Positions 12,147 through 14,622 of a stretch of DNA of 24,000 nt are shown here, in pieces. Source of the stretch: Candidatus Saccharimonadota bacterium. GTDB lineage: Bacteria; Patescibacteriota; Saccharimonadia; Saccharimonadales; Saccharimonadaceae. The notes beneath the pieces are model-generated. The model was not told the DNA's origin and ran no database searches. It worked only from the letters and a program-made list of their open reading frames with translations. Positions within the stretch are counted from its first letter, which is position 1. Each line of letters starts with the position of its first letter. The translations under genes and the position numbers were made by a program. The stretch spans positions 9,078 to 33,077 of the forward strand of contig JAAXIO010000050.1 of the NCBI GenBank assembly GCA_012270305.1, in the 5' to 3' direction.

Positions 12147-12215
12147 CATGTAGTGTCATGTACAACTAGCTTTCACCCGAGTATAGGTACCGATCCTGAA
12201 AAAATGCTGAAATAA

Positions 12216-12563
12216 TCAACTTTTTTTGATTGCTTGTTTTTTGTATAGGGTTTCGGATACAGTGCGACGGTCACGGCTATCGTGAATTGCATATACATCT
12301 ATTATGGTAAGAAATAAAATAAGGACTGTTATTGTGTAGGCGATCATTTCTTCGGCTGTTTTTGTTAAAAAGCTTTCGTTTTCAACGGTAATAGATACGA
12401 TGTTGTACCAAGTTGGGAAAAACTCAATCTTCTGAATGTGTCCGGCGTGTACGAGTAAATGAAATAACTCGTGTGCTACAAGACTCATCAATACTCCAAA
12501 AATTGTATACCAAATACGTATATCAATCAGATACTGAATAAACCTATGAGCATGCGCAACCAT
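12216..12563 (-). CDS. Small membrane protein with an HExxH motif (possible zincin-like, DUF3267-like)
   Basis: 115 aa with two or three hydrophobic segments and HELFHLLVH at the end of the first. Confidence 0.5.
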   Translation of the reverse strand: MVAHAHRFIQYLIDIRIWYTIFGVLMSLVAHELFHLLVHAGHIQKIEFFPTWYNIVSITVENESFLTKTAEEMIAYTITVLILFLTIIDVYAIHDSRDRRTVSETLYKKQAIKKS

Positions 12564-12569
12564 GAATGG

Positions 12570-12578
12570 ATAGTAACA
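12570..12578 (-). promoter_or_regulatory. Extended -10 box TGtTACTAT, 6 nt upstream of ATG 12563 (leaderless-type)
   Basis: Minus strand reads ttttTGtTACTATccattcATG. It overlaps the U-run of the upstream terminator. Confidence 0.35.
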
Positions 12579-12603
12579 AAAAAAGACTCACTGGGTAAGT
12601 CTT
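12576..12603 (-). terminator. Weak rho-independent terminator closing the ribozyme-containing transcript
   Basis: Minus strand reads AAGACU-uacccagug-AGUCUU-UUUUU, a 6-bp stem, 9-nt loop and U-run. Confidence 0.45.
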
Positions 12604-12665
12604 AATATCTCGATATGGCGGGGGCTCAAGGATGATTACCGAACCTGGTGTGGTGTAATATAGTT

Positions 12666-12720
12666 TTCGCTTTTCGTCCTTTCGGACTCATCAGCATGAA
12701 TACACATTCATGTAAGCGAA
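12666..12720 (-). ncRNA. Type III hammerhead self-cleaving ribozyme (complete core and three helices)
   Basis: Minus strand reads UUCGCUU-A|CAUGAAU-GUGU-AUUCAUG-CUGAUGA-GUCC-GAAA-GGAC-GAA-AAGCGAA. Stem III is 7 bp and open; the cleavage triplet UUA obeys NUH. Stem I is a 7-bp hairpin and stem II is 4 bp (G10.1-C11.1) with a GAAA loop. All invariant core nucleotides (C3-A9, G12-A14, A15.1-U16.1) are present. Confidence 0.88.
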
Positions 12721-12722
12721 TA

Positions 12723-12735
12723 TGACAAGCAGACA
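12723..12735. repeat. Left copy of a perfect 13-bp inverted repeat (TGACAAGCAGACA)
   Basis: It is the exact reverse complement of 13465-13477 and ends 2 nt from the hammerhead. Confidence 0.75.
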
Positions 12736-12823
12736 TGGAGTTAAGGAAAACATCACGGGGATCGTGAACCTAGGTTGTAACCCATATCCACTTGCCACAT
12801 TCGCCGTTCTGTACGAGACGACG

Positions 12824-13375
12824 TCAGTCGTCAGCCAGACCCACTTCGTTGGGGCCAGCACTGCGCGGCTGCGGTTCCCTCCGGTGCGGAGACTCACCGA
12901 TGAACGAGCTCTCGCTCTCCATCACGCCGCCCGGCTTGGTTATCTCGTCCTGACACAGCGCCACGATCCAGCGCAGCATGGTGCCAGCGATGGCCTCATC
13001 GAAGACTGCCTGAACACCGCTGAAAGCGACGATCAGTCCGTTCTCGATGACGGAGCCACCCCACTTGGTCATGCCGGGCCGGTAGAGGTGCGGAGCGTCC
13101 TGCTGAACCTTGCGGCTTGACAGTCCGGTCTCCCAGCTCACCTTCGCCTTCTCGACGGCGATGCGCTCATACTTCTCCTTGTCGGGGTGGTTCGGGTCGG
13201 CATCGGCGATGAAGATCATGTCGAACTCGCTACCCGGGTAGGTGTGCGGGAAGGCTACGACGATGGTGCCAGCGAACTTGTTGGTGACACCGTCCTCGTG
13301 AGCGGCATCAGCAGTGACGGAGACGATGTCCCACGCCTTCTTGCAGATCTTGGTGGTCAATCCGGTATAGGCCAT
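12824..13375 (-). CDS. GC-rich foreign-looking ORF (183 aa) with a possible GlcG/DUF336-like fold; start reassigned to ATG 13375
   Basis: SD AGGAAGAG lies 7 nt upstream of ATG 13375. The segments YERIAVEKAKVSWETGLSS and WGGSVIENGLIVAFSGVQAVFDEAIAG resemble the GlcG pattern (..KA.TA.. / GG.P...G..iGAiGVSG...De.iA). The C-terminal ~35 aa look disordered. Confidence 0.65.
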   Translation of the reverse strand: MAYTGLTTKICKKAWDIVSVTADAAHEDGVTNKFAGTIVVAFPHTYPGSEFDMIFIADADPNHPDKEKYERIAVEKAKVSWETGLSSRKVQQDAPHLYRPGMTKWGGSVIENGLIVAFSGVQAVFDEAIAGTMLRWIVALCQDEITKPGGVMESESSFIGESPHRREPQPRSAGPNEVGLADD

Positions 13376-13404
13376 GAGGCTACTCTTCCTAGTACTCAAC
13401 TGCA

Positions 13405-13457
13405 TAGCAGCGAGATGAAATGTTCCGCTTTGTGCCGAGCACTTAATCTCACTGCTA
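13405..13457 (-). promoter_or_regulatory. Stem-loop in the 5' leader of the GC-rich ORF
   Basis: UAGCAGUGAGAU pairs with AUCUCGCUGCUA over 12 contiguous pairs, one of them U.G. On the opposite strand that position would be an A.C mismatch. The stem encloses 29 nt containing the hairpin GUGC-ucg-GCAC. Confidence 0.4.
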
Positions 13458-13464
13458 ATTAGTT

Positions 13465-13477
13465 TGTCTGCTTGTCA
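13465..13477. repeat. Right copy of the perfect 13-bp inverted repeat (TGTCTGCTTGTCA)
   Basis: It is the exact reverse complement of 12723-12735. On the minus strand it reads uUGACAAGCAGACA, which contains TTGACA. Confidence 0.75.
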
Positions 13478-13524
13478 AAGTGCTTCGGAAACGAAGAATA
13501 CTCCCGCTTCAACGAAACAGGAGT

Positions 13525-13533
13525 ATTATAGCA
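13525..13533 (-). promoter_or_regulatory. Extended -10 box TGcTATAAT, 22 nt downstream of the tRNA-Trp 3' end
   Basis: Minus strand reads tttaTGcTATAATa. This is the same 14-mer as the rplA promoter. Confidence 0.45.
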
Positions 13534-13554
13534 TAAAATATGTAAATTGTCTAC

Positions 13555-13631
13555 TGGCAGGAGTGGAGGGACTCGAACCCCCGACACCCGGTTTTGGAGA
13601 CCGGTGCTCTAGCCACCTGAGCTACACTCCT
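13555..13631 (-). tRNA. tRNA-Trp (anticodon CCA), CCA-3' encoded
   Basis: Reverse complement: AGGAGTG-TA-GCTC-AGGTGGCTA-GAGC-A-CCGGT-CTCCAAA-ACCGG-GTGTC-GGGGG-TTCGAGT-CCCTC-CACTCCT-G-CCA. This folds as a cloverleaf with a TTCGAGT T-loop. Confidence 0.95.
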
Positions 13632-13668
13632 ATACTCGATTGATTGTACTAAATTACAGATGAAAAGG

Positions 13669-14622
13669 CTACTTATTTTGTTGAATACGAACAGCACGGC
13701 GGAATTTACGCTCTGTATCTGGGTCGGCGTAGCGAACAATTGGCTCTGCCGCAAGTAACCGATCTTTTTTGAGTAATTTCGCATTATCTTTCTCTAGGGT
13801 ACTCACAAAGTAGCGCTCAATTAGCCATTCCCTACCGGGTACAGTTTTTCCTTGCACGGTCATCATCCACAAATCATCCGACCACTGAATGGTATCTACA
13901 ATTCTCAGTTTGCCTGCGAGTGTCATAGGCCCTGTTGGTAATTTAGCAATCGATTGCCGAATGAGCTTTTCACCCAGCTCTTTATTATTTACGAGCACAT
14001 CGACAGCCATTGTTCGTACGCCATTTGGTGTTACCTGAACGGCATCGATTTTTTGATTATGTATCCAAATTATTTCACCACTCAGTGAGCGAAGTTTCGT
14101 GGAGCGAAGTGTCAATCGCTCCACCACCCCAGTAACATCAAGAAATGGCTCCACCTTAATATAATCACCTACCGTAAACCAGCGCTCAGCAATGATAGTT
14201 GCGCCCGCAGTGATGTCTCGAAGTAGTGGCCCCACGGTTTGTCCGGCAATTACAATAAATATTGCACTGGCACCAATCGCTGCCGCCCCACTACTTCTAA
14301 TTGCAGCGCTACCCTCGGGGCTCAAGATACGCCATGCTGCATATGCTACAACCGCTACTATCACTACGCGTACCGCAGCTACAATCACCCCTAGGTATGT
14401 TTCAACCTGTCTCAGTCGAACTGCTTTTATTGCGTCCGACTCATTATCTGAACGCACCGCTACCTTTTGAGCTATAAAGATAATAAATCGAGCTACATAC
14501 TTACTTAGCCAGTAGCTCACAGCAATGGCCCCGATAAGAATAAGTAATGATCGGTATGGGTTGGCCTGCGTAAAAATATCGCTCAGCTCACGGCTGAGCA
14601 TAGGAAGAAAGTCATTTGTCAT
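13669..14622 (-). CDS. Small-conductance mechanosensitive channel (MscS family)
   Basis: It has three N-terminal TMs, then GQTVGPLLRDITAGATIIAERWFTVGDYIKV..GVVERLTLRSTKLRS..G..IWIHN, the MscS pore/beta-domain signature. Confidence 0.85.
   Translation of the reverse strand: MTNDFLPMLSRELSDIFTQANPYRSLLILIGAIAVSYWLSKYVARFIIFIAQKVAVRSDNESDAIKAVRLRQVETYLGVIVAAVRVVIVAVVAYAAWRILSPEGSAAIRSSGAAAIGASAIFIVIAGQTVGPLLRDITAGATIIAERWFTVGDYIKVEPFLDVTGVVERLTLRSTKLRSLSGEIIWIHNQKIDAVQVTPNGVRTMAVDVLVNNKELGEKLIRQSIAKLPTGPMTLAGKLRIVDTIQWSDDLWMMTVQGKTVPGREWLIERYFVSTLEKDNAKLLKKDRLLAAEPIVRYADPDTERKFRRAVRIQQNK

Follow-up and report, generated by a model that had tools for sequence, protein, structure and literature searches.

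In viroid and satellite RNAs the active fold of the hammerhead has to compete with an alternative structure of greater stability, and in viroids it is the native rod or branched fold that holds the ribozyme inactive. Long-range pairing between the 5′ and 3′ parts of one RNA is known from the cyclisation sequences of flaviviruses, from the panhandles of bunyaviruses and influenza virus, and from the pairing of the 3′ with the 5′ untranslated region (UTR) in icaR of Staphylococcus aureus. Rodent Clec2 mRNAs carry a discontinuous hammerhead in their 3′UTR, with its halves split by a long insert, and this hammerhead lowers expression. Bacterial hammerheads are numerous, and to our knowledge almost none of them has a known job. 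Here we describe a gene cassette on the minus strand of a 24,000-nucleotide (nt) stretch of a Candidatus Saccharimonadota genome (assembly GCA_012270305.1, contig JAAXIO010000050.1, positions 9,078 to 33,077; hereafter the window, with position 1 its first letter), in which two 13-nt inverted repeats, the 5′ box and the 3′ box, lie on either side of a single cargo open reading frame (ORF). The cassette reads, in order, promoter, 5′ hairpin, 5′ box, structured 5′UTR, ORF, structured 3′UTR, 3′ box, 2 nt and a predicted hammerhead ribozyme. Our analysis leans towards the view that the 13-mers are the strands of a helix in the cassette transcript and belong to a structural switch that acts on, or seals, the 3′ end that the ribozyme would make.

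Each of the systems above shares something with this cassette. As in viroid and satellite hammerheads, a conserved alternative pairing sequesters a strand of the ribozyme; in contrast to them, the cassette has one ribozyme only, placed at the 3′ end of a protein-coding mRNA in a bacterium, and no replicating circle, and the proposed release is by a helix with the mRNA's own 5′UTR ~740 nt away. The cassette and the known 5′-3′ systems have in common complementary boxes of ~10-16 nt near the ends of one RNA, which covary and have a coding region between them. However, the cassette is not a viral genome, as the RNAs with panhandles or cyclisation sequences are; its 5′ box, unlike the case of icaR, leaves the ribosome-binding site unmasked, being ~75 nt upstream of it; and its 3′ partner is joined directly to a ribozyme that cleaves itself, and faces competition from an internal decoy. 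Like Clec2 mRNAs, the cassette has a hammerhead in the 3′UTR of a protein-coding mRNA that would remove the normal 3′ end, but the ribozyme is contiguous, unlike the eukaryotic one, and the long-range element is an accessory helix beside stem III. Finally, it resembles miniature inverted-repeat transposable elements (MITEs) in that a short inverted repeat surrounds a small segment with no transposase inside and in variable contexts, whereas its repeats are internal on the right side, it is apparently present in a single copy, it has no target-site duplication, and its pairing is kept through G·U pairs. In the literature we found no description of a covarying 5′UTR-3′UTR helix abutting a hammerhead together with a wobble-paired decoy that sequesters stem III, and no paper linking hammerheads to Saccharibacteria or TM7. 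That is, the parts are known (the type III hammerhead, the RAGATH-10 motif met below, 5′-3′ pairing), and it is the combination that we did not find described.

The proposed long-range helix and its local competitor

The elements on which the argument turns are the following.

13465..13477, minus strand: 5′ box UGACAAGCAGACA, 5′ strand of the proposed long-range helix
12824..13375, minus strand: cargo ORF, 183 aa
12778..12804, minus strand: 5′ arm of a local 3′UTR hairpin, made of GCGAAU (12799-12804) and a look-alike of the 5′ box, UGGCAAGUGGAUAUGGG (12781-12797)
12753..12767, minus strand: small hairpin UCACGAUCCCCGUGA in the apical loop of the local 3′UTR hairpin
12723..12735, minus strand: 3′ box UGUCUGCUUGUCA, whose partner is the 5′ box or the internal look-alike
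12666..12720, minus strand: putative type III hammerhead, with the 5′ strand of stem III, UUCGCUU, at 12714-12720 and the predicted cut after A12713 (12713/12712)

On the forward strand, TGACAAGCAGACA (12723-12735) and TGTCTGCTTGTCA (13465-13477) are exact reverse complements over 13 bp, just as an earlier note on this DNA, made by a model from the letters alone, had recorded; 729 nt lie between them. The same note had put the probability of such a match by chance below 1%, which is right for a pre-chosen 1-kb interval but does not carry over to the 24-kb window: first-order Markov shuffles of the window give an expected 0.49 perfect 13-mer inverted pairs within 1.2 kb, and 28% of the shuffles have at least one. 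The 13-mer pair is also the sole perfect inverted pair of at least 12 nt within 1.2 kb in the whole window. Since about half a pair per window is expected by chance, the 13-bp repeat alone is weak evidence and not beyond chance; its reality follows from conservation and covariation in related loci and not from the repeat itself.

To this end, related loci were gathered by homology of the cargo protein, and the 5′ and 3′ box regions of 21 distinct Saccharibacteria loci were aligned without gaps. In the helix between the two boxes (helix A), 84.8% of the alignment cells are paired and 10 of the 16 pairs have changed on both sides. The covariation score is 0.213 vs. 0.085 in shuffles, with none of 500 shuffles reaching the observed values, and sliding the partner by 1-3 columns leaves pairing at only 26-47%. 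Compensatory changes lead, for instance, from GCAGA/UCUGC to GUAGA/UCUAC, GACAUG/CAUGUC, GAUAAG/CUUAUC and GUAUUGAG/CUCAAUAC, and the boxes across the loci include a UUGACAAGCAGA-type 5′ box and a UCUGCUUGUCA-type 3′ box. The inner end of the helix makes it 11 to 16 bp long among the loci, with the changes matched on both strands, and the 3′ box always lies 2 nt before the type III hammerhead in the related loci that bear one. Furthermore, three loci with neither a hammerhead nor such a box (L009, L062 and L070) have unrelated complementary pairs at the equivalent 5′ position and after the stop codon (p = 0.0002, 0.008 and 0.0002, respectively). The alignments support an RNA-level reading in which the 13-mers would be the two strands of a conserved long-range helix.

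It is important to note that these results rest on contiguous-helix scoring and anchored alignments, which we used in place of RNAduplex energies; the latter, computed for 5′UTR vs. 3′UTR against shuffles, were uninformative (z from -3 to +0.7), as the program stitches together long, loop-rich duplexes. A continuous pairing between the cleaved 3′ tail and the leader hairpin's 3′ strand was considered and set aside, with only 3-5 bp found and inconsistently so across loci.

That the repeat is a chance match, or a functionless by-product of common descent, would agree with the shuffle statistics given above and with most close relatives sharing the box sequence. However, such an origin does not account for the compensatory double changes, for pairing kept with wholly different sequences in distant relatives, or for the constant position of the boxes relative to the ribozyme and the leader hairpin, and we consider it exceedingly improbable.

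As a separate observation, the three hammerhead-less loci have ordinary terminators, and their 5′-3′ complementarity spans 10-14 bp. Its 3′ strand begins at the stop codon or directly behind it, where a ribosome in the course of termination would unwind the 5′-3′ helix.

The 3′ box has a second and stronger partner close by, which the earlier note overlooked. In loci of the window's lineage, the 3′ box, together with the 6 nt after it, pairs with the 3′UTR look-alike of the 5′ box (12797-12781). Wherever look-alike and 5′ box differ, the change is a transition, and what would be a Watson-Crick pair with the 3′ box becomes a G·U pair. In the window, 17 pairs thus follow one another without a break, 5 of them as wobbles, and a 17-bp run with 4-5 G·U pairs is found in the window, L102, L059/L060 and L103. 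Directly upstream of the look-alike, GCGAAU (12804-12799) is a copy of the 3′ strand of stem III and pairs with AUUCGC, the 5′ strand of that stem, and the two arms together make one continuous, G·U-rich hairpin of ~28 bp (hairpin B; -46.8 kcal/mol for the 3′UTR). The 3′ box and this stem III strand of the hammerhead both lie buried in it. Across 10 loci from two sub-lineages (alignment A7), hairpin B is 83.8% paired vs. 37-47% in slid controls, and one of its G·U pairs is kept in 9 of the 10 loci. Its base covaries with the lineage-specific stem III strands (UUCGC, CUCGC, UCCGC and CGCCGC), with 88.8% of cells paired vs. 34-47% when slid (alignment A8). In terms of duplex energies, the local hairpin is at -29.8 vs. 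-22.6 kcal/mol for helix A in the window's lineage. Divergence through wobbles only is a signature of sense-strand RNA, and it is the strongest argument against any DNA-level reading of the 13-mers. Loci with a short 3′UTR have no look-alike, but do have a GCGAAC...GUUCGC hairpin around the 3′ box, and in a third group of loci, with neither the look-alike nor the GCGAAC hairpin, the 5′ box is the only partner of the 3′ box.

Taken together, one strand (12743-12714), with the 3′ box and the UAUUCGCUU behind it, can choose among three conserved partners: the 5′ box ~740 nt upstream, with 13 Watson-Crick pairs (A); in the window's lineage, the look-alike plus GCGAAU (B); and the ribozyme's own 3′ strand, which forms stem III (C). 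Helix A and stem III are compatible with each other, whereas hairpin B excludes helix A and the base of hairpin B excludes stem III. After the predicted cleavage, hairpin B would seal the new 3′ end with a 3-nt overhang in the window and with 0-4 nt in all the loci that bear the look-alike.

Alternatively, it is possible that the boxes form a static panhandle, that is, that they pair after cleavage to protect or juxtapose the ends of the mRNA and have no effect on how the hammerhead folds. The covariation of helix A fits this alternative, and four loci without a look-alike (L008, L107, L010 and L064), in which the 3′ box and the tail are locally unpaired and the 5′ box is their sole partner, have the longest helices (13-16 bp). 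In addition, the helix probability exceeds 0.96 in the cleaved mRNAs of most loci, and the helix is kept in loci with a damaged or missing ribozyme and in hammerhead-less relatives. In the window's lineage, however, the more stable hairpin B already seals the 3′ end, which makes a panhandle redundant there, and the 5′ box nonetheless stays perfectly complementary. The strand shared with stem III, and the conserved copy, further upstream, of the stem III partner strand, also point beyond end protection. Hence, of the 5′-3′ RNA pairing that the earlier note had proposed, the core stands, on the evidence of covariation, a free 5′ box and the folds, while a simple static panhandle is unlikely in the window's lineage given that hairpin B competes for the 3′ box; overall we consider it a minority option, though one to be taken seriously. 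A variant, in which the helix stacks on stem III and the two make a ~20-bp processing site for RNase III like the stems of rRNA precursors, has the shortness of a 13-bp helix against it.

The hammerhead and its predicted dependence on the 5′ box

The Rfam model Hammerhead_3 matches the ribozyme at 12666-12720. Its score of 40.3 bits falls short of the gathering score (48.5), with an E-value of 6e-7 for the local search and 1e-5 window-wide, and the hammerheads of relatives score similarly (32-41 bits). The match places the 3′ box 2 nt from the hammerhead and 10 nt from the predicted cut, in agreement with the earlier note. Its core, CUGAUGA...GAAA, is intact, with the triplet UUA before the predicted cleavage site, and is invariant in 20 related ribozymes, in which 8 of the 11 pairs of stems I and II show compensatory changes. 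The strands of stem III vary together by eye (UUCGCUU/AAGCGAA, AUACUUU/AAAGUAU, GUUGUU/AACAAC), and stems I and II are capped by loops while stem III is open. Judging from these sequence features, the hammerhead is real, of type III and putatively catalytic.

In the window, the 3′UTR and ribozyme folded alone have a minimum-energy structure with hairpin B and no stem III; the probability of stem III is ~0.06, and enforcing it costs 2.2 kcal/mol. In the full-length transcript, the probabilities are 0.54 for stem III and 0.56 for helix A. We then replaced the 5′ box in the folds by its complement, by one neutral sequence and by two shuffles. Upon replacement, the folds of the window and L060 give stem III a probability of 0.000, those of L011 one of 0.007-0.032 and those of L063 one of 0.001-0.004. 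In these four loci with a look-alike, neutral replacements bring it from 0.47-0.97 to at most 0.03. The complement of the 5′ box created new pairings of its own, and the neutral and shuffled replacements weakened the claim for loci without the look-alike. The predicted folds suggest that, where hairpin B is present, the distant 5′ box may be needed to open it so that the ribozyme can fold. In folds of the 5′UTR only, the 5′ box is part of a single-stranded linker and mostly unpaired (mean probability of being unpaired 0.6 in the window).

Based on these predictions, events might proceed as follows. The local hairpin B would form first during transcription and hold the hammerhead off; the free 5′ box would then pair with the 3′ box and open hairpin B, upon which stem III could form; the ribozyme would cut 10 nt past the 3′ box and leave a 2′,3′-cyclic-phosphate end; and this new end would be held in the 5′-3′ panhandle or in a re-formed hairpin B, with its 3-nt overhang. 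Either end structure would protect an mRNA that is now without a terminator. In this respect, the description of the mRNA as terminator-less in the earlier note applies to the cleaved product only, since a terminator-like hairpin lies ~60 nt past the ribozyme (12583-12603). A simpler alternative would be that breathing at the hairpin base is sufficient to allow cleavage, with the 5′ box serving end protection only.

Several results weigh against a switch of this kind. Stem III depends on the 5′ box hardly or not at all in L001, L004 and L106. In L008 the dependence is incomplete (a drop from 0.85 to 0.42), in L107 the effect goes the other way, and the folds of L102 have no stem III at all. 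While the probability of helix A in folds of the cleaved mRNA is above 0.87 in 9 of 11 loci, it is only 0.35 in that of the window, where helix A is not part of the minimum-energy fold. The wobble asymmetry within helix A is weak (3 G·U vs. 1 A·C). The boxes are kept, and perfectly complementary, in loci where the ribozyme looks damaged or lost: the core reads CCGAUGA in L058, the ribozyme is gone after the 3′ box in L066, and A15.1 has changed to G in L102 (GAAG for GAAA). As the boxes persist without a sound ribozyme, helix A should have some role that does not need cleavage. The alignments, moreover, are anchored on the hypothesised register, which favours the structure over the slid controls, and the loci are phylogenetically related, meaning that independent compensatory events are fewer than the cell counts. 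Finally, the folds are equilibrium predictions for RNAs of ~800 nt that ignore co-transcriptional folding, ribosomes and proteins, and all the functional evidence is computational.

The helix would also bring the region near the 5′ end beside the 3′ end made by the ribozyme, as would be required if the cleaved 3′ end were ligated to the 5′ end by an RtcB-type ligase and the RNA circularised in the manner of viroids and retrozymes. Ends made by hammerheads are indeed substrates of RtcB. However, there is one ribozyme only, a search with Rfam found no 5′-processing ribozyme, and the 5′ triphosphate would lie ~45 nt upstream of the helix, beyond a stable hairpin, all of which leaves circularisation with hardly any probability.

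A more complete reading, which we offer only tentatively and hold to be rather unlikely in all its parts, is that the folding of the hammerhead is gated by the 5′UTR-3′UTR helix of its own mRNA, so that the ribozyme would sense the ends of that mRNA, with the decoy serving as off-state and as seal, and that the whole is a portable cassette shuttling a GC-rich, actinobacteria-like gene among Saccharibacteria. This is a hammerhead at a fixed place on a defined mRNA, with conserved partners that hint at how and when it may cut. If the 5′ box does release the ribozyme, the cassette would be a natural case of long-range allosteric control of a small self-cleaving ribozyme, and also of communication between the 5′ and 3′ ends of a bacterial mRNA.

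Genomic context and DNA-level readings

At nearly every locus the cassette sits in a different gene neighbourhood with no shared flanking genes, the exception being the arrangement ClpC-cassette-NusA, which is common to two diverged versions. The backbone of the window (MscS, tRNA-Trp, a gap, genes of 115 and 261 aa, AAA_33, YgjP, histidine kinase, GT2, SecE, NusG) is conserved in L111 and L112. L112 keeps MscS, tRNA-Trp, homologues of 112 and 261 aa and AAA_33, and four unrelated low-GC ORFs replace the cassette. Given the varied neighbourhoods and this variable site, some mobility at the DNA level, recombination or replacement of the whole cassette is likely. A clean empty site, sought by means of the conserved 261-aa neighbour, was not found, the intergenic DNA being too diverged to define junctions. 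The variable spot, from tRNA-Trp to the 115-aa gene, spans 12564-13554 in the window vs. 315-3555 in L112.

The question is then whether the 13-mers are the ends of what moves. The earlier note had offered, as one of two readings, terminal inverted repeats of a 755-bp non-autonomous cassette, that is, a MITE-like element with one cargo gene and a transposase encoded elsewhere. The differing neighbourhoods and the variable region beside tRNA-Trp would suit such an element, as would a cargo that is compositionally foreign and, above all, the comparison between the window and L102 (85% identical), in which high identity begins exactly at the 5′ box. The same homology, however, ends ~20 nt past the hammerhead, and L059/L060 are homologous to the window from the -10 region to a point downstream of the hammerhead. 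Beyond the 3′ box, 57 nt of sequence are still conserved, with the whole hammerhead among them, and on the right the homology stops ~57-80 nt from that box and never at the box itself. Further, the promoter and leader hairpin upstream of the 5′ box belong to the recurrent architecture. As the earlier note had seen, there is neither a transposase nor a convincing target-site duplication: the flanks of the 13-mers on the plus strand are ...gcgaata before 12723 and aagtgct... after 13477 (on the minus strand, the 5′ box is preceded by ...GAAGCACUU and the 3′ box followed by UAUUCGC...), and no transposase, integrase or recombinase is encoded within ~6 kb of the cassette. The window has one copy of the cassette, and there is usually, and apparently, one locus per genome in a collection of species representatives. 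Nor was a cassette found in viral contigs, searched with the DNA pattern and the protein, or in phage genomes, searched with the DNA pattern, and plasmids, searched with the cargo protein only, gave only distant homologues. A MITE-like element would also not explain why G·U pairs are tolerated or why a third, wobble-paired copy lies in the 3′UTR. Given the homology past the 3′ box, the promoter and leader in the recurrent architecture, the lack of a target-site duplication and the tolerance of G·U pairs, the 13-mers are not the cassette ends, and the claim of terminal inverted repeats does not hold up; a MITE-like origin of the repeats thus appears improbable.

An inverton, in which a recombinase flips the segment from 5′UTR to ORF relative to the promoter and recombination keeps the repeats identical, deserves mention for a similar reason: the size and spacing of the repeats fit known invertons, and recombination would change both repeats together. 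However, the order promoter, 5′ box, ORF, 3′ box and ribozyme is found in the same orientation in all of the loci, at least 21 in number, no recombinase is nearby, and an inverton would explain neither the wobbles, nor the variation at the inner end of the helix, nor the constant 2 nt between box and ribozyme. We therefore attach next to no weight to this possibility.

A better candidate for a DNA boundary than the 13-mers is found in the lineage of L060, where a 90-nt inverted repeat (1211-1300 / 2166-2255; 79% complementary) lies ~30 nt outside the promoter and the ribozyme. Its left arm is also present in L059 and L103, its right arm is absent in L103, and nothing similar occurs in the window. 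A further inverted repeat in the window, of 15 nt and 87% complementary (12173-12187 / 13629-13643), has a right arm that overlaps the 5′ end of tRNA-Trp and is probably due to chance.

The modules of the cassette also appear to have been shuffled. The window and L001 proteins are 94% identical and yet come with different 5′UTR classes and 3′UTR types, and L104 combines the 5′UTR class of the window with an L001-type 3′UTR; recombination seems to break at the conserved boxes. In L064 (positions 1-560, JADKLW010001815.1), a second 3′ box and type III hammerhead (CCUGUCUGCUUGUCGUAGUUGUU|C..., core 526-548) follow a different GC-rich ORF just upstream of the homologous cassette. Judging by this arrangement, the framework may carry other cargo genes, and cassettes can apparently stand in tandem.

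The remaining elements and the cargo gene

The remaining features of the cassette and its edges in the window are as follows.

13555..13631, minus strand: tRNA-Trp(CCA), upstream edge of the variable region; the cassette promoter starts 2 nt past its 3′ end
13525..13553, minus strand: promoter TAGACA, 17-nt spacer, TGcTATAAT (extended -10), with 11 of 12 consensus matches plus TG
13483..13524, minus strand: 5′ leader hairpin(s) directly after the -10; the family motif is stem, G-UYGAG...CUC-C, stem
13393..13457, minus strand: structured 5′UTR element 'class B', composed of a long hairpin (13405-13457) and, after it, the invariant CAGUUGAGUA (13393-13402)
12583..12603, minus strand: terminator-like hairpin that includes a U run; it comes after the ribozyme and immediately precedes the 115-aa ORF (12216-12563)

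A T(A/G)TGCTATAAT promoter is at the same place in related loci, and we infer the transcription start from its position. In most of the related loci, too, a terminator comes behind the hammerhead. The 5′ box itself contains TTGACA and was considered as a promoter; this was rejected, with no -10 following it, and the hexamer changes together with compensating changes of the 3′ box in L063 and L064, which argues against a promoter as well. With promoter, end protection and 3′-end formation, the cassette would bring its own means of expression.

The outer stem of the leader hairpin covaries, with compensatory changes in 6 of 8 pairs (family alignment A11; the corresponding stretch in 18 loci). 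In the window the leader is rearranged into two hairpins, one of them at 13527-13497. The leader has no match in Rfam, and the idea that it is a known 5′ ribozyme was rejected on that ground. In the family, the core G-UYGAG...CUC-C is conserved while the outer stem varies freely in covariation. Between the window and the 85%-identical L102, the leader region is wholly replaced and the remainder is ~93% identical.

Across the family, the 5′UTR element comes in two forms at the same position, namely the class B hairpin or RAGATH-10 (RF03147). The class B form reads GCAGYGAG...CUCGCUGC, then the invariant CAGUUGAGUA just before the ribosome-binding site, and shows compensatory changes in 13 of 20 pairs across 13 loci; in the window it has no Rfam match even at E <= 10. 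Its carriers are the window, L059, L060, L063, L011, L013, L037, L062, L068, L070 and L102-104, and its UUGAG word recurs in the leader hairpin. RAGATH-10 scores above the gathering score of 41.2 in the 5′UTRs of L001 (52.6 bits) and L004-6 (42.8 bits), and has no match at 12300-13700 of the window even at E <= 10. In L001 and L004-6, its place is downstream of the 5′ box and upstream of the start codon, the 3′ end being occupied by the hammerhead, and the Rfam model of RAGATH-10 does not take in the 5′ box. The function of this motif is unknown (PMC11061315), and the text of Weinberg 2017 (PMC5737381) does not mention it. The cassette thus gives an orphan Rfam motif a genomic and structural context, and it defines two further covarying RNA elements outside Rfam.

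The cargo protein has 89 homologues, from metagenome-assembled genomes of Saccharibacteria and from Actinomycetota, the latter at 31-46% identity (Demequina, Rhodococcus, Mycolicibacterium). The window protein itself has no Pfam match, while PF03928 is matched by 6 of 41 family members. Its AlphaFold2 model (pLDDT, the predicted local distance difference test score, 87) finds 2a2l, 6bws (EfgA) and 3fpv (HbpS) with Foldseek at E of 3e-5 to 3e-4 and a template-modelling score of ~0.6 on the target. Based on the model and on the family matches, the cargo is predicted to have a DUF336/GlcG/HbpS-like fold (PF03928).

The GC content of the ORF is 62%, and 81% at third codon positions (GC3), in a neighbourhood of 44% GC. 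More broadly, GC3 is 0.75-0.90 in this ORF and ~35 related ORFs, with flanks of 0.44-0.55 GC, across lineages that have diverged to ~50-60% protein identity. The nearest homologues outside Saccharibacteria are in Actinomycetota, the usual hosts of these epibionts. The cassette may illustrate how the small genomes of Saccharibacteria keep a foreign, GC-rich gene expressible, one that probably came from actinobacterial hosts, and the GC-rich state of the ORF could reflect either repeated transfer or selection for GC-rich codons.

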